Source: a virus
Lineage: Duplodnaviria; Heunggongvirae; Uroviricota; Caudoviricetes
Virus record (IMG/VR): IMGVR_UViG_2671181011_000016
DNA: 53,208 nucleotides
Reading direction: 5' to 3' (one strand)
Under the pieces are notes generated by a model. That model worked only from the letters and a program-made list of their open reading frames with translations, had not been told where the DNA came from and made no database searches. Made by a program: the position numbers and the translations under genes. Of the stretch, positions 11,650-46,958 are shown piece by piece; within the stretch, counting starts at the first letter, position 1, and every line of letters starts with the position of its first letter.

Positions 11650-11735
11650 GATTCCCCCTATAAGTTACATATTGCATACATCTTTACGCGCTTCTACGCG
11701 AAAAATGAGAAATTCATCACAAGAATTATAACCAG

Positions 11736-11777
11736 TTTACAAAATGGCTTCACATAGGGCGTGACAAGATGTATATA
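11736..11777 (+). promoter_or_regulatory. sigma70-like promoter of moron cassette B with upstream TTTACAAAATGG motif
   Basis: motif 11736-11747, -35 TTCACA (11749-11754), 17-bp spacer, -10 TATATA (11772-11777). Confidence 0.6.
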
Positions 11778-11992: not shown

Positions 11993-12247
11993 ATGAAATT
12001 GGTAGCGATTGGTAAAAATCTGAAAGCACAGAAAAACGCACAGGACCGGATCATCAAAAAGGGCAAGGCTTTATTAAATGCTTTCCTGAGAAAAGAGGCC
12101 ACCCCCAAAAAATTACGCGATGGTTACGGTTATAAATTTGATATTAACCCCGATTGGCGGTTATTCAGCGAAGATTTAAAGGCGTGGTTAATTATCGACC
12201 ATCTGGAATATAACAGACACTGTGGGGTTAAAGGGGCGCATAAGTAA
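11993..12247 (+). CDS. hypothetical basic protein (moron B2)
   Basis: 84 aa; RBS GGGGTGGG; Lys-rich N-terminus. Confidence 0.55.
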   Translation: MKLVAIGKNLKAQKNAQDRIIKKGKALLNAFLRKEATPKKLRDGYGYKFDINPDWRLFSEDLKAWLIIDHLEYNRHCGVKGAHK

Positions 12248-12354
12248 GGCGGGCATGAAGGGCGATAAATTCACCCGGCGGGGGAACTGGAATGTTTGAC
12301 AGGTAATTTTGGATAGGGTGTATCGCGCGGAATGGTTGTTTATAAATACGAAAA

Positions 12355-30864: not shown

Positions 30865-30908
30865 TATATAACAAAACGGCACTGCCGTAACAATGCCATT
30901 TTGTATAC
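30865..30908 (-). promoter_or_regulatory. sigma70-like promoter with upstream GTATACAAAATGG motif
   Basis: minus strand: motif (30896-30908), -35 TTGTTA, 17-bp spacer, -10 TATATA (30865-30870). Confidence 0.55.
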
Positions 30909-30916
30909 TTTGTGAT

Positions 30917-34321: not shown

Positions 34322-34448
34322 TTAACGCGCTTGCCATACCCAATATCAATCGCGCTTCTGCACCAGTGACTTTCTTACACCATGCACCGCCCGTTTTATC
34401 TTCGAACAAGATAACGGCAAACTTATCGTTTATTTCCAGCTTATCCAT
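34248..34448 (-). CDS. hypothetical protein
   Basis: 66 aa ORF. Confidence 0.35.
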   Translation of the reverse strand: MDKLEINDKFAVILFEDKTGGAWCKKVTGAEARLILGMASALNDGELPAVPVEPVHIYGRSNDNEA

Positions 34449-35170
34449 TATTCACCCCGCGTCACTCGTTTAATTTCGTTATCTGCCCGCGCCTCTTCTT
34501 TGAACAATTCAGCAATGGCGTCTTCATAGAAAACCCGGTATTTCTTCCACCATGTTGATCGGCTTACCGGAAAAACAAGCTGATTAACCGCCTGCCGGAC
34601 AAGATCTACAGGGAAACGCGAGTACCCGCGCCCGCCGCAGTGATGGCACGTTTTGAACACTGGCATTTCCGCCGCTTCACTGGCTGCTTTATCCGGTACT
34701 TCGCCACGACCCTTGCATTGTTTACAATGATTGCGAACTGTCCCATGCCCCTTGCATTTTTTGCAAAGGTGTTTTTCTCCGTATTCGTCAAACGTAAATT
34801 TATATCCGCCGCACTCCACGCAAGTTTTTTCCGTCGCGGCACTCTGGCAATAATCCCGAAACGCGAAAACGGCAACAAGAATAATGAGATCATTGCGTTT
34901 GGCCTCGTCCAGTTCCATAACGTATTCATAATCTTTTGCCATAGCCCTTAAACGCTCTGTAAGCAAAACTACGGCCTTATGTTTTTCTGCTTGTGATAGT
35001 TCCATCTTCCCTAAAAAAGCACTGTAACCAAGCTCTACGCGCGATTGCGCCATACCTGCGGCAGTTAGTGCATCCGTAGTATTAAGCGCATCCGGGGACG
35101 TGCCCCGGCTTTCATCTGATAAACGCGGCGATTTTGGGAAGTGGAATTTTAGAATTGATTCCAAATTCAT
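34448..35170 (-). CDS. zinc-finger protein with four CxxCxGxG repeats; possible antiterminator Q (phage 82/21 type)
   Basis: 240 aa; CVECGGYK, CKKCKGHG, CKQCKGRG, CHHCGGRG; lies downstream of ninG/rusA as Q does in lambdoid phages; Q assignment is positional. Confidence 0.4.
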   Translation of the reverse strand: MNLESILKFHFPKSPRLSDESRGTSPDALNTTDALTAAGMAQSRVELGYSAFLGKMELSQAEKHKAVVLLTERLRAMAKDYEYVMELDEAKRNDLIILVAVFAFRDYCQSAATEKTCVECGGYKFTFDEYGEKHLCKKCKGHGTVRNHCKQCKGRGEVPDKAASEAAEMPVFKTCHHCGGRGYSRFPVDLVRQAVNQLVFPVSRSTWWKKYRVFYEDAIAELFKEEARADNEIKRVTRGE

Positions 35171-35988: not shown

Positions 35989-36590
35989 GCTGCCTTTCTC
36001 CTTAAGGCGTCTAATTTAGCCTGATAGACTTTTATGATTTCCTTACATTCTTCTATCGTCCATTTGTGAGTTTCGTTGTTGTTCTCCAGAGCTACCACCC
36101 TGGCGAGGCCAATTTTTCGAATCAGCGCCGGGCGATACCCTCCGATGTTGCCGTCTAGTGTCTGGTTGCAGTGCCTGCATTGCTTGTGACAATTATCCTC
36201 GTTGAAACGAAGGTGTCCGGCGGCGGCTACCGTCCTGTAATGGCCTGCATCCCACCCGCATTGCTCACCGTAGTAAGTCCCGCATGATATGCACGGCAAT
36301 CGCGAGTCACGCTCGCGTATATAAGCGTTAAAAACGTTTTGCGCCTGTTTAATCCAGTAGCTACGCGGATTTAACTGCTTCCTCTTCCGGCTGCGCTCTT
36401 CCCGCTGGCTATCACGGCGCTTCTTCCGTTCCATAGCCTTCATAGCCTTCTCACGGTCGCGGCATAACTGGTCAAACTTCAGTTCTTCCAGACATTCATC
36501 GCTGCACCACGTTTGATTATGATATTTAGGCTCAAAAAAAACGCCGCAGCACTTGCAACGGCGTCTTATGGGTTTTTTAGGGTTTTGCAT
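35985..36590 (-). CDS. ninG: recombination protein NinG (Rap)
   Basis: 201 aa from ATG with RBS GGGGTGG; strong by-eye match to lambda NinG (PRSYWIKQAQ, RLPCISCGT, WDAGHYRT, LRFNE.N.HKQC, RWTIEECK). Confidence 0.85.
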   Translation of the reverse strand: MQNPKKPIRRRCKCCGVFFEPKYHNQTWCSDECLEELKFDQLCRDREKAMKAMERKKRRDSQREERSRKRKQLNPRSYWIKQAQNVFNAYIRERDSRLPCISCGTYYGEQCGWDAGHYRTVAAAGHLRFNEDNCHKQCRHCNQTLDGNIGGYRPALIRKIGLARVVALENNNETHKWTIEECKEIIKVYQAKLDALRRKAA

Positions 36591-36781: not shown

Positions 36782-36940
36782 AATGCTCTCTCCTTTTCAG
36801 GTGATTTCTACGCATTTCAGCGCTGCCGGATTTTTAAAGAGCATTTCGTTTGCTTGAAGTATACAAAATGGATACACCAGAACAAGGCAAAAAGCGCCAT
36901 TATGTGATCTGTATCACGCAATGACGCCATTATGTAAACT

Positions 36941-37723
36941 TCAGTCCGGCAAAACGCGGTTGAGCGTAGTACGATTGATGGCCCGGTCATTAGCCATGAA
37001 TACAGCACGGGCAAAGCCGCGCGGCGTTAGTGAGCGGATCATCTTTGTTCGTTTCGTCCGGCCTCCTGTTTTTGCCCACCCCGGGTTATCACCAGAGTTA
37101 AGATCTACAGGCCTGAAAAGTGGCTGCTTAAATCCATTACCGCACCAAATACAAGTTTTCTTTGTATACGCGTCGCGCGCCGGGTAAACATCCGGGAAAG
37201 CAGGATGTTTGTCGTCTTCCGGCAGGTAGCCACCGTAATCGCACGGGTTGAAGATAAAATCAGGTTTGCGCCATAGCGTTGACAGTGCTCCCACCGGATT
37301 TTCCACCATCCACGGCACGTTGTGCATATCAGCCAGTTTTTCTACCAGTTTTGCGCTATTCGCCGCCTTCACCTGGAAGTCAGGATCTTTTTCCCGTTTG
37401 TCAGCGAACCAGCGAGCGCCAGACACTGCGAGATCGTCGCACGGCGGGAAGCCCAGGATAATATCAGGATCCGGGTAAACAGATAATTCAGGCGAGAACA
37501 TCACCAGGAAGTGACTGTCAATCCATACGTTAACATATTCAATATTCGGATGAATGATTTTAACGCCTTCATAATCGCCGTGATTTGCGCCGTCATAGTT
37601 GAAGCAATAGCACTTATATCCCGCTTCCGCCCAGTCTTTAACGGCGTAGCCGCTGCCGTCGTACAGCGACCACACAACCCAACTTCTAAGCCAATTATTT
37701 AACCAGTGTTTAGCCTTGCTCAT
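36941..37723 (-). CDS. DNA (cytosine-5)-methyltransferase-like protein with atypical motif IV
   Basis: 260 aa; motif I-like (LYDGSGYA), motif IV-like GFPPCDD (PC followed by D, not Q), motif VI-like MVENPVG; short for a canonical C5-MTase. Confidence 0.45.
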   Translation of the reverse strand: MSKAKHWLNNWLRSWVVWSLYDGSGYAVKDWAEAGYKCYCFNYDGANHGDYEGVKIIHPNIEYVNVWIDSHFLVMFSPELSVYPDPDIILGFPPCDDLAVSGARWFADKREKDPDFQVKAANSAKLVEKLADMHNVPWMVENPVGALSTLWRKPDFIFNPCDYGGYLPEDDKHPAFPDVYPARDAYTKKTCIWCGNGFKQPLFRPVDLNSGDNPGWAKTGGRTKRTKMIRSLTPRGFARAVFMANDRAINRTTLNRVLPD

Positions 37724-39728: not shown

Positions 39729-39918
39729 TCACTCCGCCTTTCACGCGCTCCTTAATGTCCCACGTATGCGGTTTACATAACTCATGGTAATAGTGATCCG
39801 GCCTGCTGCCGAAATACCATTTACCTTCCATATAAAAATAAACGCCCGAAAAAATTCCGGGCGCTGCCTTTGTTGCTTCTTCTGGAATCTTCCATTCTTT
39901 ATACTGTTTAAACTTCAT
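39715..39918 (-). CDS. hypothetical protein
   Basis: 67 aa ORF. Confidence 0.4.
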   Translation of the reverse strand: MKFKQYKEWKIPEEATKAAPGIFSGVYFYMEGKWYFGSRPDHYYHELCKPHTWDIKERVKGGVIEDV

Positions 39919-40416: not shown

Positions 40417-40515
40417 CTTGTTTCCCTCCGTACCGTAAACCTTTTGATTTAAGTTTACAAAACGGATTCGCGATCACAGTACAAAATGTATAGCTATGTG
40501 ATCGCAATCACAATA

Positions 40516-42686: not shown

Positions 42687-43106
42687 TTAAAAAGGGATGT
42701 CATCATCAAAATCCATTGGTGGTTCTTTATATCCACCGTTATGATTCTGCTGCGGCTGCGCTTTCTGCTGCTGTCCTTGCTGCTGGCCTTGCTGGTTAAT
42801 GTTCATGAATTCGAACTCATTAACCGCCACTTCTACCGCAGTTCCCTTCGTGCCGTCGTTCCGGTCATATTGCCGAACATCCAGGCGACCGCTTACCACT
42901 ATTTTTCCATCCTTACGGATATGTGGCGCTAATTTTTCCGCACGCTCGCCAAATACCAGGCAAGTGATCCACATTGTCCGTTTATTATCACCGTAGCCAT
43001 TCGTTACAGCTAACGGAAAACTACCAATCGCTTTCCCGTTTTGTGTGTAGCGAACTTCCATATCATTCCCGATATTACCGCCCAGCGTGATTGAATTTAA
43101 GCTCAT
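42687..43106 (-). CDS. ssb: single-stranded DNA-binding protein
   Basis: 139 aa; OB-fold-like N-terminal part, Gln/Gly-rich linker and acidic C-terminal tail ending DFDDDIPF. Confidence 0.85.
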   Translation of the reverse strand: MSLNSITLGGNIGNDMEVRYTQNGKAIGSFPLAVTNGYGDNKRTMWITCLVFGERAEKLAPHIRKDGKIVVSGRLDVRQYDRNDGTKGTAVEVAVNEFEFMNINQQGQQQGQQQKAQPQQNHNGGYKEPPMDFDDDIPF

Positions 43107-43747
43107 TAACTGATCTCCCCTTTAAGCTCTTTTAAGCGAATGTCATAAACGTCTTTCGCTTTCTGCTGCTGCTCTGAATCTTTAGGCAGTAGTTTCCAGC
43201 ACTTCCCGAAGATCTCGCGTAACTTGTTAGCGTCCTGTGCTTTCGCTGCCGCATCACAGAAACGCGCTAACACCTCATCAGGATTTGGCGGCGCTTTCGG
43301 CGGCTGTGGTTGTTGTTTTGGTGGATTTTTCTGTTGGCGAGGCTGCTGGCCTGTCTGCTTGGCGTATGCGTCAGTATCAGGATCTCGCGCATCATCAATA
43401 CAGAACAATCCGTTCAACGCGTATTTACGCGCATAACTTGATGTCGCGCCAGTTAACTGGCTTGCGTCCATTCCCTTCTTGCTTTCTTCTTCCCTGGCGT
43501 AAGCAGTTACCGCAATTTCATCTTCGCCGTCGCTTAGTGTAGCCGTTGCTTTCACATAATAGCGATTGCCGATCAGGACAATTTCATCACTAACAGTCAG
43601 CGTGATATTTTGAAGCAGTGGTTTAACCGCCTCTAAAATATCCTCCGCCGACCTGTAATTATATCCACCAAAATTATTACGCTGATTTTTCGGCGCGTTC
43701 AGCGTTTGCTGAATCGTCCATAGCTTTTTATGTAACTCTGTTTTCAC
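43106..43747 (-). CDS. erf: ERF-family single-strand annealing recombinase
   Basis: 213 aa; N-terminal NFGGYNYRSAEDILEAVKPLL typical of Erf; adjacent to ssb as in P22. Confidence 0.75.
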   Translation of the reverse strand: MKTELHKKLWTIQQTLNAPKNQRNNFGGYNYRSAEDILEAVKPLLQNITLTVSDEIVLIGNRYYVKATATLSDGEDEIAVTAYAREEESKKGMDASQLTGATSSYARKYALNGLFCIDDARDPDTDAYAKQTGQQPRQQKNPPKQQPQPPKAPPNPDEVLARFCDAAAKAQDANKLREIFGKCWKLLPKDSEQQQKAKDVYDIRLKELKGEIS

Positions 43748-43896
43748 TATTTAATCTCCCGTGCTGTTAACACTATGTATAAGGCTTTATTCGCGGCGCT
43801 CCACATTTCGGCATCGTGAAGCATTTCCGCTACTGCCAGTTTGAATTGAAGCGCCTGAATAACCATAATGTCATCTCCGGACGTTTACATTTTGTA

Positions 43897-44187
43897 TTAA
43901 TGATAGCGGACTTTATCCAGGGGTTTTTCCCCTAAATGGCGTGGTTGCGTTGCGTGGTAGTAGCTGCCGCTTTCATTTTCCGTATACCATTTTACTGATC
44001 CTTTGCGACGTTCTTTAATGCTATTTGGTTTGCATCTTTCCTCGTTTGCAAATCGAATAGCTTTATCCACATTGTCTGTTTTATTGATTGCAGGTGATGA
44101 TTTTCTTTCGTTTTCTCTTTTTATCCTTCTGCGTTCCCTGGCATTCATTTTGCTATCACATTTACCATATATAATTGTAACGCTCAT
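43897..44187 (-). CDS. N-like transcription antiterminator (P22 gene 24-like)
   Basis: 96 aa; N-terminus MSVTIIYGK...NARERRRIKRENERK resembles the P22 N start and the arginine-rich motif of N proteins (from memory); first gene downstream of PL and nutL. Confidence 0.55.
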   Translation of the reverse strand: MSVTIIYGKCDSKMNARERRRIKRENERKSSPAINKTDNVDKAIRFANEERCKPNSIKERRKGSVKWYTENESGSYYHATQPRHLGEKPLDKVRYH

Positions 44188-44243
44188 AATCTGATCTCCG
44201 TATATCCTTGATGATACTTAATAAAAAATCATCTTCGTTAATT

Positions 44244-44281
44244 GCCGCACTTCCAGCGGCTGACCAGATTGTTAATGAGCG
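44244..44281 (-). promoter_or_regulatory. candidate nutL site (boxA plus boxB hairpin)
   Basis: minus strand CGCTCATTAACAA (boxA-like, cf. CGCTCTTA) then GCCGC-TGGAAGT-GCGGC hairpin (boxB-like), 60-100 nt upstream of the N-like ATG. Confidence 0.45.
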
Positions 44282-44535
44282 GCTTAACATCTTTCAACTA
44301 ATCCCGCAATCATCGCCGTTCCCGGCGTGACCTTGCTCACTCCAAGCAAGCTGACTCGTCGCCTTGCGTGCGGTTTCGTGGGGGATGTAACGCTTTAAAC
44401 ACCCCATGCGCCTTGTTATCAGTGCCGCTTTCGGTCCCCCATCGGGGAGTTACTCCACGGTTGACAAGGTGTTAAGCCTGATTTTTAAAGTGCCAGGAAG
44501 TTGCTTTTGTTACCTGCGCCCTTCCTTTGATTCGC

Positions 44536-44578
44536 AATATACGCCCCGTAAAACACCGAGTCAATCCATTTTGTATAC
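44536..44578 (-). promoter_or_regulatory. candidate PL promoter with upstream GTATACAAAATGG motif
   Basis: minus strand: motif (44566-44578), -35 TTGACT, 17-bp spacer, -10 TATATT (44536-44541). Confidence 0.55.
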
Positions 44579-44654
44579 TTTTTTAAAATATTTTATATGC
44601 CATTGATATTTAAATAATAAATAACGTTTTCTGTTTACGTTTTGGTGTTTTCCA

Positions 44655-44683
44655 GGCAAAGAAAAGCCGCCATTCGGCGGCTA
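44655..44683 (-). terminator. rho-independent terminator after cI
   Basis: hairpin GCCGCC-ATTC-GGCGGC immediately 3' of the cI stop, followed on the minus strand by TTTTCTTTG. Confidence 0.6.
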
Positions 44684-44687
44684 ATGT

Positions 44688-45335
44688 TTATGGCAGGTTT
44701 ACGATCTTCGCATCAACCACCACGCCTATAATTTTTGATTCTGGATTCATAGGGATTGGCGGATACAGCGGATTCAGCGAACGTAAAAGCCTTTGACCTC
44801 CATCAATAATCAACTGTTTAAACGTCGGTATCTGCCCTTCCTCAAGCTGGGCTATAACCAGTTTGCCGTCAATAGCTGGCGCGTGCGGGTCAACAAGTAT
44901 CATCGTCCCCGCCGGGATGCTCAACCCCTGCGGCGCGTTCATTGATTCACCTTTGGCAACCAGCCAGTAACTATCATCTGAACAAATAACGCTAGTCGTA
45001 ACGTGTGGTAATGCTGATCGCCTTGTGTCATCCATATTGTTTACTGTGTCCTTCCAGTCAATAACCGGGTAACTACCTAAATCACGCGGCGGTGCGGCCT
45101 GAAGTGTATTAGAAACAGAATCATCAATGACCATACCATCATGTGTAACAGTGAACTGCCGACGACCAAGCGCCCGCATAATCCGCGCAATATCTTCAAG
45201 ATTTGGCTCGCGGCGACCGTTCAGCCAGTGTGACAGGCCGCCTTTAGTTATCCCCATGAGATCTGCGAGTGAATCCTGACTCATGCCCTGCGCCCGCATG
45301 AGCTGCTTTGCTAAGTCATACCATTTTGTTTTCAT
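44688..45335 (-). CDS. cI: CI-type prophage repressor (HTH plus S24 LexA-like autopeptidase domain)
   Basis: 215 aa; N-terminal HTH (QDSLADLMGITKGGLSHWLNG); C-terminal GESM Ser motif and TFKQLIIDGGQRLLRSLNPLYP closely resembling the lambda CI C-terminus. Confidence 0.85.
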   Translation of the reverse strand: MKTKWYDLAKQLMRAQGMSQDSLADLMGITKGGLSHWLNGRREPNLEDIARIMRALGRRQFTVTHDGMVIDDSVSNTLQAAPPRDLGSYPVIDWKDTVNNMDDTRRSALPHVTTSVICSDDSYWLVAKGESMNAPQGLSIPAGTMILVDPHAPAIDGKLVIAQLEEGQIPTFKQLIIDGGQRLLRSLNPLYPPIPMNPESKIIGVVVDAKIVNLP

Positions 45336-45641
45336 GTCGCTACCCTATAACCTCAAAAAGTTTGATGCAAGTCACAAAACGTGTATTTTAAGCCTTGATC
45401 TTAAAATTCCATTTTGTAAACTTGCAGACAAGGTAAGGCCATACTTGCAAAGACGCAAGGAAAAAGATAACGGAAGGCACAAAAAGGCACTTACCTTAAG
45501 CTCTTTAAAAATCCGGTGTCGCTGCGAAGCGAAAAACAAATATCACGCAACGGCGGGATCTGTTCAGCGGTCAGTCACTGCTATCTAATGCTAATGGGAT
45601 GCCCGCCCGCGCGTTCACTCTAACCATAGGAGAAAAACAAG
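45336..45641. promoter_or_regulatory. immunity-region intergenic segment (divergent promoters / operators)
   Basis: 306 bp between divergent cI and rightward operon; CTTGC..GCAAG inverted repeats (e.g. CTTGCAAAGACGCAAG); motif copy TTTACAAAATGG at 45409-45420 (minus); exact -10/-35 boxes not resolved. Confidence 0.5.
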
Positions 45642-45896
45642 ATGAGTATGCACATGATGAATGAAGCATGGAACGTAAAACTTAACAGCCCGATCCAAAA
45701 ACTTGTCTTAATTGCGTTTGCAGAAAAGGCAGACAACAAAGGCCGCGCACATGCTTCACGCGAAGAGATCGCAAAAGTGTGCGAACTGCCACTGCATACT
45801 ACTGTTGACGCATTAAATTCATTGATCCGCAAAGGATTCATTAAACGCGCTGACGAATACGGCGACATTTATGACATTGCATTGCCGGAGGAATGA
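45642..45896 (+). CDS. HTH DNA-binding protein (first gene of rightward operon)
   Basis: 84 aa; RBS AGGAG; winged-helix/HTH-like segment ASREEIAKVCELPLHTTVDALNSLIRKGFIKR; not an obvious Cro. Confidence 0.55.
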   Translation: MSMHMMNEAWNVKLNSPIQKLVLIAFAEKADNKGRAHASREEIAKVCELPLHTTVDALNSLIRKGFIKRADEYGDIYDIALPEE

Positions 45897-45899
45897 TCT

Positions 45900-46958
45900 A
45901 TGAAGTGGTTTAAGCATGATAGCGATGCGAACCGCGATGAAAAACTTCAAAACGTTTTATTAGATTATGGCCTGGAAGGGTACGGGCTTTATTGGTATTG
46001 CCTAGAACTAATAACTTATGACGTAGATCAGCACAATCTAACTTTTGACCTACGACATGACGCAAGAATAATTGCGCGAAACGTCGGATCTACTGAAAAA
46101 CGTATAGAAGAAATGATGAAATACTTCATCGAAATTGGTTTGTTTGAATGTTCTCAAGGCCACATAACTTGTTTAAAGTTATTGAAAAGGCTGGACCAAT
46201 CAATGACTTCTAAAAGCGCTTACAGGGCCGCCATAAACACAGCGAAGGAGCAATTAAAATTAGAAAAGTTAATCAATCCAACACAAAAAGGTCATGATAG
46301 GGTCATGACCGGGTCAGGAAAGGGTCATGAATTAGAATTAGAATTAGAAGTAGAAAAAGAAAGAGAAAAAGATATATACACTTCGTGTATTGTCGAAAAT
46401 GAACAAAAAATGGTCAATCAGGATGGCGCAAACGAAGCGGCGTTGCGTTGCCTGGCCTTCTACAACGACAAGGCAGGATGCAAATGTCGTGATGCGAAGC
46501 CATTCATCGAACTACTGACAGAAACAAAAACACGTAAAGCGTATACGGAGGATGAGATCACATTAGTGATTGAGTGGGCTTTAACGCAATGGCGTAGCCG
46601 TGGTGGAACACCTAAGCCTATAAACATTTGCCGGGTAACTAAATTTGATGGGTATCTGGCTGATGCTGAAAAATGGCGCAAACTGTCAGCCACTGCAAAC
46701 GCTGCCGACGTAGTGGAGGCATTTAACAGCACGTTTGATGGCCTGTTGCCACCTGCCGAACTGGATCGGGATCTTGAACGCAAGATTTATGCGTTCACTG
46801 ACTACCTGAAAGACAAAAGCATCAACGGCTTTGTCGCCTACTTTGAAACGTTCAAAAACACGGCTTCAGATTTTTACTTCGGCAATGGCTTCACAGCGAC
46901 ACTTGATTTCCTTCTTAAACCAAAAACGCTACGTGATACACGATGTGGCGCTCTTTGA
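45900..46958 (+). CDS. replication initiation / replisome organizer protein
   Basis: 352 aa; N-terminus MKWFKHDSDANRDEKL...GLEGYGLYWYCLE resembles organizer-type N-terminal domains; contains phased iterons plus AT-rich tract like lambda O/ori. Confidence 0.55.
   Translation: MKWFKHDSDANRDEKLQNVLLDYGLEGYGLYWYCLELITYDVDQHNLTFDLRHDARIIARNVGSTEKRIEEMMKYFIEIGLFECSQGHITCLKLLKRLDQSMTSKSAYRAAINTAKEQLKLEKLINPTQKGHDRVMTGSGKGHELELELEVEKEREKDIYTSCIVENEQKMVNQDGANEAALRCLAFYNDKAGCKCRDAKPFIELLTETKTRKAYTEDEITLVIEWALTQWRSRGGTPKPINICRVTKFDGYLADAEKWRKLSATANAADVVEAFNSTFDGLLPPAELDRDLERKIYAFTDYLKDKSINGFVAYFETFKNTASDFYFGNGFTATLDFLLKPKTLRDTRCGAL
46288..46382. other. candidate origin of replication: four iterons with 11-bp phasing plus AT-rich tract
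   Basis: GGTCATGA at 46290, 46301, 46323 and GGTCAGGA at 46312 (exact 11-bp spacing), followed by ATTAGAATTAGAATTAGAAGTAGAAAAAGAAAGAGAAAAAGATATATA. Confidence 0.6.

Follow-up and report, generated by a model that had tools for sequence, protein, structure and literature searches.

The locus examined here raises the question of whether the first leftward gene of a temperate phage, together with the leader in front of it, controls early transcription by N-dependent antitermination, as a sequence-only reading of the DNA had proposed. The window, as the whole stretch of DNA analyzed is called here, is the 53,208-nt IMG/VR record IMGVR_UViG_2671181011_000016. Based on our analysis, the locus is very probably the module for early control in a temperate coliphage of the mEpimmI group, working like the N-nut systems of lambda and P22. 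The system itself is already known, having been demonstrated experimentally in phage mEp021. According to section 3.5 of PMC11893012, citing Valencia-Toxqui 2023, experiments identified Gp17 of mEp021 as an early antiterminator of the lambda N kind, which has a conserved arginine-rich motif (ARM) and acts through three nut sites.

Phage context and early promoter

The window is 99.4% identical to MagusPhagus, an mEpimmI-group E. coli phage, and its nucleotide identity to mEp021, mEp010 and mEp515 is 93-96% (93% for mEp021). With 93-99% identity to the mEp phages and MagusPhagus and the gene order of mEp021, it is an mEpimmI-type genome. The minus strand encodes the N-like protein, kil, erf, ssb, abc2, a methyltransferase, ninG, rusA, a Q-like late activator, endolysin and spanin, and also terminase, portal and tail J. 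The antitermination arm is accordingly the one carrying lysis and morphogenesis genes, as the sequence-only reading had stated. The following features precede the leader.

44688..45335, minus strand: CI/LexA-type prophage repressor gene (Rep021 homologue), upstream of the promoter and on the same strand as gp17
44665..44682, minus strand: intrinsic terminator after the repressor gene, AGCCGCC-GAAT-GGCGGCT plus TTTTCTTT, from a terminator scan
44566..44580, plus strand: the recurrent 15-mer CCATTTTGTATACTT without mismatch, inverse to gp17 transcription and lying upstream of the -35 element with one nucleotide (44565) in between
44536..44564, minus strand: sigma-70 early promoter TTGACT-17-TATATT (TTGACT 44564-44559, TATATT 44541-44536)

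The repressor gene matches Pfam HTH_3 (5e-13), Peptidase_S24 (4.4e-19) and phrog_4, and relatives annotate it as cI repressor. The predicted terminator behind it, which is annotated in mEp021, mEp010, mEp013 and others and kept in all relatives, shields the early promoter from repressor transcripts. The promoter was found where it had been placed earlier; it agrees with the consensus at 10 of 12 positions, is the top match within the 3.5-kb region scanned, and would start transcription near 44528-44532. Among relatives the hexamers are kept (TTGAC[T/A], TATA[T/G]T) and the 17-nt spacer varies. Early transcription from this promoter is presumably under repressor control.

The recurrent motif said to precede the promoter is also present, and this copy is invariant in relatives. 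Allowing up to three mismatches, the window holds 15 matches to the 15-mer compared with 2.4 expected, including further exact copies at 30896(+) and 36857(-) and a copy with one mismatch at 45409(+). The CAAAACGT sites are related to this motif.

The 198-nt leader segment

The sequence-only reading overlooked that the roughly 250 nt from the promoter to boxA are a discrete, optional structured insert with a degenerate second boxA at its 5' edge.

44496..44525, minus strand: 5' leader hairpin GGAAG...CTTCC, before the first boxA-like element, read from the sequence and paired in the minimum free energy (MFE) fold
44477..44493, minus strand: GCACTTTAAAAATCAGG, a degenerate second boxA marking the 5' edge of the segment, the fourth extended-boxA copy (2 mismatches)
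44281..44478, minus strand: optional structured leader segment of 198 nt, closing helix GGCUUAACACCUUGUCAAC / GUUGAAAGAUGUUAAGCC

The degenerate boxA agrees at 88% with the boxA at 45500-45516 and is found in long-leader relatives only. About a quarter of relatives lack the segment; where present, it is 93.6-100% identical compared with 81% for the flanks, and mEp021 carries it at 97.7% identity. It is closed by a terminal helix of 17 bp and folds with an MFE of -73.9 kcal/mol (z=-2.1). Just one of its hairpins varies, with three double-compensatory pairs, and as the segment is otherwise nearly invariant, covariation can be read for that hairpin and not for the whole. Outside it the segment is about 97% identical, in phages with Gp17 proteins only 72% identical. 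Long and short leaders both occur in both Gp17 clades; as a cassette with the conserved promoter and boxA at its borders, the segment has apparently been exchanged between mEpimmI lineages.

The segment was found in 31 of 5426 E. coli genomes and in four phage records, in single copy and at this locus only; a multi-copy MITE or repeat was rejected on that ground. A termini-anchored pattern, GGCTTAACACC...GATGTTAAGCC, returned only the same 34 IMG/VR loci. A promoter-anchored scan of metagenomes returned only the long and short leader classes already seen, with no other kind of insert. Scanning species genomes with a 19-mer core gave nine matches, which are attributed to chance because only the seed matched. 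Rfam covariance models at E<=10 gave no match on either strand of 44281-44530, and an Rfam E-value scan of 43000-46500 gave chance-level matches only, none of them in the leader. A group I intron or ribozyme was set aside: there is no Rfam match, and the segment ends form one long helix with each other. An integron attC site was considered as well, as the termini fit RYYYAAC...GTTRRRY, but the interior is branched, the segment is longer than attC sites typically are and a cassette context is lacking, and the fit was judged coincidental.

The segment could simply be a gene for a 37-aa protein (mEp021_16, 44294-44407 in the window) and not a functional RNA, with its stop shortly before boxA, like cro relative to lambda nutR. 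An ATG-initiated ORF is annotated here in mEp021, mEp010, mEp515 and MagusPhagus, AAGG stands 3 nt before the ATG, the stop lies 12 nt before boxA, and substitutions outside the variable hairpin, read by eye, run at about 5 synonymous to 5 non-synonymous. However, PGAP annotates no gene at the locus in the 31 E. coli genomes, and the product has no PHROG or other family match. The start codon lies inside a predicted helix, and the conserved block reaches about 70 nt upstream of the ORF, closed by the terminal helix. In addition, the 8-nt difference that marks the STEC308 group preserves the pairing of a 6-bp hairpin while altering 6 of 13 residues non-conservatively. That the segment is simply such a gene is unlikely.

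The segment with its degenerate boxA may instead be an undescribed phage-specific structured RNA module within the first transcript made on infection, a reading that we hold tentatively and at somewhat less than even chance. Given the 17-bp closing helix, an RNase III-excisable RNA is one candidate role. The segment could also serve as a larger or accessory nut-like platform or as a decoy, as it directly follows a boxA, where boxB would be, and contains GNRA hairpins resembling boxB (for example CGCCG-GGAA-CGGCG); a further hairpin in it is CUUGCU-UGGAGUG-AGCAAG. Regulation of gp17 expression is a third candidate.

The N-like protein

43897..44187, minus strand: gp17 homologue of 96 aa beginning MSVTIIYGKCDSKMNARERRRIKRENERK, an N-like antiterminator with an ARM

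The gene has a Shine-Dalgarno sequence, GGAG, at 44195-44198, with 7 nt between its end and the ATG. Its product is 92.7% identical to mEp021_17 (Gp17) and matches phrog_271, 'anti-termination protein N-like' (E=1.3e-13); the MagusPhagus counterpart carries the same annotation. The first leftward gene is therefore N-like, as had been claimed, and the claimed ARM is present at residues 15-29. The conserved ARM arginines R17, R19, R20 and R24 are found in the window's protein, as is R21, and N15, A16, R17, R20 and R24 are invariant over 11 family members. A C-terminal block, WY-E-ESG-Y-HATQPR-LGE-PLDKVRYH, is specific to the Gp17 family. An AF2 model (mean pLDDT 57) predicts helices at 16-30 and 32-49 and is of low confidence in the remainder, the pattern expected of a disordered N-type protein. 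The homologue would thus be small and basic, with an arginine-rich helix at its N-terminus and disorder over most of its length, consistent with an N-type antiterminator.

The proposed likeness to P22 gene 24 is real at the N-terminus, where 10 of 20 residues are identical (BLASTP E=0.017, single comparison), and weak by profile. With Pfam PF25694 (N_peptide) the homologue scores 15.9 bits (E=0.019), below the curated gathering threshold of 27.9 bits; P22 gp24 reaches 152 bits, whereas lambda N, at 16.4 bits, is level with the homologue. The alignment to lambda N, which had been suggested along with that to P22, gave no detectable similarity (BLASTP E=11), and Pfam PF11438 (N36) had no match at E<=1. 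The family is narrow: tblastn with Gp17 against 50,697 phage records found mEpimmI phages only, a PDB sequence search found nothing meaningful, and its profile found no relative among genomes sampled at one per bacterial species. An exhaustive HMM search returned four representatives, two of them from the family itself (one a fragment), the third a distant 115-aa relative, P0032, and the fourth a 3778-aa protein that was discounted for having no matched stretch. None of these provides a bridge from Gp17 to the P22 or lambda N proteins.

In pairwise comparison the ARM comes closest to Nun of HK022 (SRDRRRIARWEKR vs NARERRRIKRENERK, E=0.006), which raises the possibility that Gp17 is a Nun-like exclusion factor, with an ARM that binds the boxB of competitors and arrests their transcription, and with no antitermination of its own. 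The two proteins also share a short motif, E-x-P-[LM]-DKV, gp17 like Nun is the first gene after an early promoter, and HK022 has a structured cis-acting RNA, putL, between PL and its first gene. Nun, in contrast, terminates transcription on other phages, and for this arrest needs a C-terminal His-rich, Zn-binding region and a penultimate Trp. The corresponding HxH...KKW tail (...VNHAHQRNPNKKWS) is absent from Gp17, which ends ...GEKPLDKVRYH. The put RNAs of HK022 are about 70 nt and act without a phage protein, and by eye they show no obvious resemblance to the 198-nt segment, while the window phage has three cognate boxA-boxB sites. Moreover, Gp17 is reported to promote antitermination on its own nut sites (PMC11893012). 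A Nun-like role is very improbable.

The nut sites and early control

44269..44281, minus strand: boxA CGCTCATTAACAA, exact match, 82-94 nt upstream of the gp17 ATG (extended motif 44264-44280)
44244..44260, minus strand: boxB hairpin GCCGC-UGGAAGU-GCGGC, after an 8-nt spacer
39841..39865, minus strand: strong intrinsic terminator (11-bp stem, T-run) that lies downstream of gp17 and before the second nut site, from a terminator scan; candidate antitermination target
36810..36842, minus strand: second nut site, GCTCTTTAAAAATCCGG-CA-GCGC-UGAAAU-GCGU, directly downstream of the DNA methyltransferase gene (phrog_757, E=7e-88)
45500..45532, plus strand: third nut site, GCTCTTTAAAAATCCGG-TG-UCGCU-GCGA-AGCGA, transcribed away from the repressor gene and towards replication genes
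34448-35170, minus strand: Q-like late activator

The boxA-like element and the GCCGC-loop-GCGGC hairpin of the sequence-only reading both lie upstream of gp17, between promoter and gene. The rrn boxA is TGCTCTTTAACAA; the window's boxA agrees with it at 11 of 13 positions, and that of short-leader relatives is identical to it. In relatives boxA and its spacing to boxB hold while the boxB stem changes by compensatory substitutions (GCUAC/GUAGC, UGCAC/GUGCA, GCAC/GUGC and UCGC/GCGA), at a conserved position and down to 60% Gp17 identity. At pair 24-34, 9 sequences have GC and 3 have AU; at pair 23-35, 12 have CG and 1 has UA, and none of 500 shuffles reached the covariation score. More divergent stems occur in L016, L017 and L096, and in one natural variant, L047, the stem contains an A.C mismatch. 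Folding, which had been suggested as a check, gave the isolated hairpin a stability equal to that of shuffled sequence (z about 0), so that support for boxB is comparative and not thermodynamic. Both the N similarity and the hairpin conservation on which the sequence-only reading had staked its proposal were found, the former at the N-terminus of P22 gp24.

The extended boxA GCTCWTTAAMAATCYGG occurs in four copies in the window compared with 0.12 expected, a number reached by no shuffle. Each stands after a promoter-like element, and in three of the four a short GC hairpin follows 3-4 nt later. Upstream of the second nut site is TTGTTC-16-TATACT with the recurrent motif inside; the third is preceded by an AAGG...CCTT hairpin, analogous to the leader hairpin at 44496-44525, and is kept in relatives, where a GUGA loop and a U.U pair closing the loop also occur. 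That the boxA/boxB pair is a chance look-alike, with an ORF for a basic protein of another role and no dedicated early site, is barely credible: hairpin energy, the subthreshold Pfam score and the 13-mer boxA pattern (26 matches with <=3 mismatches vs 20 expected, no enrichment) would fit it, but the 17-mer count, the conserved position and compensating stems, and the experimental evidence in mEp021 (PMC11893012) do not.

In mEp021, nutR1 precedes gp17, nutR2 follows the gp32 methyltransferase gene and nutL is upstream of the repressor gene (PMC11893012), and the window has its three sites in the same places. From the Fig. 7 legend of that paper, 36810-36842(-) takes the position of nutR2 and 45500-45532(+) that of nutL. 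The hairpin at 44244-44260 is likely the boxB of published nutR1, matched by position and not by published sequence; the homologue of 44244-44281 in mEp021 is 12232-12268. The candidate nut site thus stands, while the name nutL given to it earlier belongs to another site in the literature, where this one is nutR1. All sites have the form boxA-spacer-boxB with a GNRA-like loop (GAAA, GCGA, GUGA, or GGAA within UGGAAGU). As the three boxB loops of the one genome differ (UGGAAGU, UGAAAU and GCGA), a single recognition rule is not obvious. Across phages, ARM and boxB co-vary in a way that suggests a specificity code, but the idea is undercut because one Gp17 must serve three loops in its own genome.

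Under the antitermination scenario, host sigma-70 RNA polymerase would start at the early promoter after infection or derepression and transcribe a leader of roughly 340 nt, including boxA and boxB, and then gp17. The arginine-rich helix of Gp17 (residues about 15-30) would bind the GNRA-type boxB loop on the nascent RNA while boxA recruits NusB/S10, and the complex with NusA and NusG would ride the polymerase through downstream terminators, possibly the one at 39841-39865. The same events may occur at the other two nut sites, allowing expression of the delayed-early genes of both arms and of the Q-like activator. Our analysis establishes the homology, the site positions, and the conservation and covariation of site parts. 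Gp17- and Nus-dependent antitermination at terminators is reported for mEp021 only, a relative of the window phage (PMC11893012; Valencia-Toxqui et al. 2023, Arch Virol 168:92).

With mEp021 the window shares gp17, gene order, promoter, nut positions, boxA and the 198-nt segment; the differences are strain-level substitutions, and the window is nearer MagusPhagus. P22 gp24 has a similar N-terminus (MTVITYGK...NAK-RR) and an ARM near residue 15. Gene 24 is likewise the first after PL, downstream of a same-strand repressor gene and with Erf, kil and abc2 downstream. P22 nutL has boxA GCTCTTTAAC and then a 5-bp GC hairpin with a GNRA-like loop about 19-20 nt from the boxA start, a geometry close to that of the window. 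However, the proteins are unrelated past residue 20, the window loop is UGGAAGU and not GACAA, and the window has three nut sites and an N operon that extends to the Q, lysis and morphogenesis genes. Lambda shares the layout of repressor gene, PL, nut (boxA and boxB) and N, and ARM-boxB recognition, but its N is dissimilar in sequence and its two nut sites are on divergent operons. The structured RNase III leader of lambda is downstream of nutL, whereas the structured segment of the window is upstream of nut. Nus dependence is shared by lambda and the mEp group as reported (PMC11893012).

Since the system has already been shown experimentally in mEp021, the antitermination interpretation is correct but ordinary, and as another genome copy of a published system the finding matters little. 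It does supply a family nut definition, namely GCTCWTTAAMAATCYGG, 3-4 nt, and a CGC/GCG-type stem closing a U-GNRA-U/A loop, and natural boxB/ARM variant pairs usable for specificity swaps, neither of which appears in the available text of PMC11893012. The 198-nt segment is the sole undescribed part and the one item that could repay an experiment; phages with long (mEp021, mEp010, mEp515) and short leaders (mEp013, mEp044, mEp554) are in one laboratory's collection. Sequence alone is enough to recognize the mEpimmI layout, in which one long operon, served by three nut sites, begins with an N-like gene and extends into Q, lysis and morphogenesis genes.

The early region and its described counterpart

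Every element named in the sequence-only reading of this region (an ORF, boxA, a boxB hairpin, a promoter and a recurrent motif) was found where it had been placed.

Early-region elements in 5' to 3' order
44688-45335 (-), CI/LexA-type repressor gene, first in the order
44665-44682 (-), intrinsic terminator downstream of the repressor gene
minus strand, AT-rich stretch whose 3' end is an exact copy of the recurrent 15-mer (44566-44580)
44564-44536 (-), promoter TTGACT-17-TATATT
minus strand, leader of ~340 nt from promoter to gp17
44281-44269 (-), boxA CGCTCATTAACAA, in the leader
44260-44244 (-), boxB GCCGC-TGGAAGT-GCGGC, 8-nt spacer after boxA
43897-44187 (-), gp17, 96-aa ORF with N-terminus MSVTIIYGKCDSKMNARERRRIKRENERK
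minus strand, downstream of gp17, kil-like 39-aa ORF, then erf, ssb and abc2

The end of the boxB hairpin lies 57 nt upstream of the gp17 ATG. Directly 3' of gp17, the kil-like ORF (43747-43866(-)) matches phrog_34942 (7e-31) and, weakly and below cut-off, Pfam lambda Kil (2e-4). Gene order here (N-like, kil, erf, ssb, abc2) mirrors that of the P22 and HK022 left operons.

Escherichia phage MagusPhagus shares 99.4% identity with this region over 1 kb, and mEp021, mEp010 and mEp515 share 93-96%. The encoded protein has 100% identity to a MagusPhagus CDS that carries the annotation 'anti-termination protein N-like', and 92.7% to mEp021_17. In mEp021, the protein responsible for early antitermination is the lambda-N-like Gp17 (PMC11893012, citing Valencia-Toxqui et al. 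2023). PMC11893012 also states that arginines 17, 19, 20 and 24 are kept in 48/48 mEpimmI phages and that the group is Nus-dependent. It gives three nut sites for mEp021 Gp17: nutR1 precedes gp17, nutR2 follows the gp32 methyltransferase gene, and nutL lies upstream of the repressor gene. The earlier proposal of N-nut antitermination is supported by homology to the mEp021 Gp17 system, and the system of the window already has an experimental description, in a phage that is 93% identical.

Gp17, its nut sites and the minus-strand operon

The likeness to P22 gene 24 is real, with 50% identity over residues 1-20 by BLASTP, but thin (E=0.017, a single comparison), and alignment with lambda N found no similarity. 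Scored with the Pfam N_peptide model, the P22 gp24 family, Gp17 reached 15.9 bits (cut-off 27.9) and lambda N 16.4 bits. The arginine-rich motif (ARM) of Gp17 aligned somewhat better with HK022 Nun (E=0.006) than with P22 gp24, and PHROG 271 ('N-like') matched Gp17 at 1.3e-13. Unlike P22 and lambda N, Gp17 has an invariant C-terminal block, WY-E-ESG-Y-HA-QPR-LGE-PLD-VRYH. Its AF2 model has helices at 16-30 and 32-49 and is otherwise of low confidence, a predicted fold that fits an N-type disordered protein.

Judged by sequence searches, the Gp17 family is small and isolated. It comprises 31 clusters at at least 60% identity, and a profile search run exhaustively over 1.8 billion representatives gave four matches: the family itself, one family fragment, one distant 115-aa relative, and a 3778-aa entry that has no matched stretch and was discounted. 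No copy was present in any species-representative genome searched.

The window has four copies of a 17-nt extended boxA, GCTCWTTAAMAATCYGG, where 0.12 would be expected, and at three copies a short hairpin follows after 3-4 nt.

Extended boxA copies
44264-44280 (-), at the nut site of the sequence-only reading, hairpin GCCGC-UGGAAGU-GCGGC
36826-36842 (-), just downstream of the DNA methyltransferase gene (phrog_757), hairpin GCGC-UGAAAU-GCGU
45500-45516 (+), in a 306-nt gap that separates the repressor gene from the rightward replication genes, hairpin UCGCU-GCGA-AGCGA
44477-44493 (-), degenerate, two mismatches

The three boxA-hairpin sites are the three published nut positions, a match by position, not by site sequence. 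The boxA-to-boxB geometry upstream of gp17 is close to that of P22 nutL. Besides the third nut site, the gap at 45336-45641 contains an imperfect inverted repeat of 27 nt (45366-45392 / 45400-45426) and a promoter-like element; no cro-like ORF separates the repressor gene from the rightward genes. The first rightward ORFs, 45642-45896 (84 aa, HTH_36) and 45900-46958 (352 aa), jointly resemble replication initiators.

TTGACT-17-TATATT is the top sigma-70 match within the 3.5 kb scanned. Relatives were drawn from phage records, 35 E. coli prophages, 44 IMG/VR contigs, 21 metagenome contigs and Logan/ENA assembly contigs; all keep the hexamers TTGAC[T/A] and TATA[T/G]T around a spacer that varies at many positions, even in lineages where Gp17 identity is no more than 60-70%, the pattern that would be expected of a working promoter. 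The recurrent 15-mer, CCATTTTGTATACTT, matches 15 sites with 3 or fewer mismatches (2.4 expected), among them 44566-44580(+), 30896-30910(+), 36857-36871(-), 45409-45423(+), 11733-11747(-), 40451-40465(-) and 36927-36941(+). The copies at 36857 and 45409 form the -10 (TATACT and TAAACT) of promoter-like TTGTTC-16 and TTGATC-16 elements, which precede the second and third nut sites by 20-90 nt; the copy at the gp17 promoter has the inverse orientation and adjoins the -35. The 15-mer may serve as an operator or as part of a promoter module, and related CAAAACGT repeats are present at ~44625-44650 and 45375. The ~100 nt from the inverted 15-mer to the bidirectional terminator hairpin (44585-44682(+)) are highly conserved even in divergent relatives, and Rfam gave only chance-level matches there; if the 15-mer is a plus-strand promoter, a short transcript would end at the 44665-44682 hairpin.

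Minus-strand order downstream of gp17
39841-39865 (-), strong intrinsic terminator with an 11-bp stem, between gp17 and the second nut site
minus strand, methyltransferase gene, second nut site, ninG, rusA
34448-35170 (-), Q-like antiterminator
minus strand, endolysin, spanin, terminase, portal, tail J

Given this order, the earlier remark that the N-type system heads the lysis and morphogenesis arm was correct; this feature is already published for the mEpimmI group. A weaker terminator-like hairpin with a T8 run, 36542-36560(-), falls within the ninG ORF, shortly downstream of the second nut site. It and 39841-39865(-) are both candidate targets of Gp17-dependent readthrough.

A structured segment in the gp17 leader

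The 250 nt between promoter and boxA, overlooked in the sequence-only reading, are not an ordinary leader. A 216-nt block is present in 9/13 aligned relatives (the window, mEp021, mEp010, mEp515, STEC308, RM9245, E21845, UMNK88 and strain 127) and missing from mEp013, mEp044, mEp554 and PAR; 34/44 IMG/VR loci have it, and L016, L017 and L096, the lineages that diverge most, lack it. In short-leader phages, boxA TGCTCTTTAACAA, which matches the rrn boxA consensus, lies ~42-50 nt after the -10. At that position long-leader phages have a degenerate boxA, GCACTTTAAAAATCAGG (44493-44477), followed directly by a 198-nt segment (44478-44281) and then the functional boxA/boxB. An imperfect boxA duplication of 17 nt flanks the segment, which is single-copy and found only at this locus. 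Because long and short leaders both occur inside each of the two main Gp17 clades, the block seems to be exchanged as a cassette, with the conserved promoter and boxA at its borders.

The ends of the segment pair in a near-continuous 17-bp helix, and the whole folds as a multi-branched structure (MFE -73.9 kcal/mol, z=-2.1; 7/200 shuffles equally good). Where present it is 93.6-100% identical, with the surrounding 811 nt down to 81%. In the STEC308 group, eight differences fall in one hairpin, CUUGCU-UGGAGUG-AGCAAG becoming AUCACU-UGGAUUG-AGUGGU, through three double-compensatory pairs and one wobble change; they also alter 6/13 residues of a 37-aa ORF that is annotated in some records, uncalled by PGAP and without a family match. 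Rfam gave no match to the segment. Options considered for its role are an RNA excised by RNase III, a nut-like platform with an auxiliary or decoy function, a control element for gp17 expression and, after all, a small gene. This structured cassette is the sole item for which no description was found.

boxB and ARM variation among relatives

Taken alone, the thermodynamic stability of the boxB hairpin upstream of gp17 is not unusual; support for the predicted hairpin is comparative. It is retained in related phages while its stem sequence changes. In an alignment of 13 sequences, all nut site types pooled, the loop-proximal pair is always C-G, the second G-C (9/13), A-U (3/13) or unpaired (1/13), and the third C-G (12/13) or U-A (1/13); the covariation score was reached by 0/500 shuffles. 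Loops are GNRA-type (GAAA, GCGA, GUGA, or GGAA inside UGGAAGU), with a closing U-A, U.U or U.G pair.

ARM and boxB variants at the gp17 locus
NARERRRIKRENERK with GCCGC-UGGAAGU-GCGGC
NAR[KA]RRRMKRAAEQ with GCUAC-UGAAAU-GUAGC (STEC308 group; loci L008-L010, which are STEC308, RM9245 and E21845) or UGCAC-UGAAAU-GUGCA (L096)
NARERRRLKRAGKVK with GCACU-GAAA-AGUGC (L016)
ANARTIRRMKRRAAEQ with UCGC-UGAAAU-GCGA (L017)

The third nut site, UCGCU-GCGA-AGCGA, is unchanged across these ARM variants. One metagenome contig (L118, OQVL01004386.1) matches the long-leader form to mid-boxB (…GCCGCTGGAAG) and is unrelated beyond; this break inside the nut site probably reflects chimeric assembly or a breakpoint of rearrangement. 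The paired variants of the Gp17 ARM and boxB are natural material for specificity swaps.
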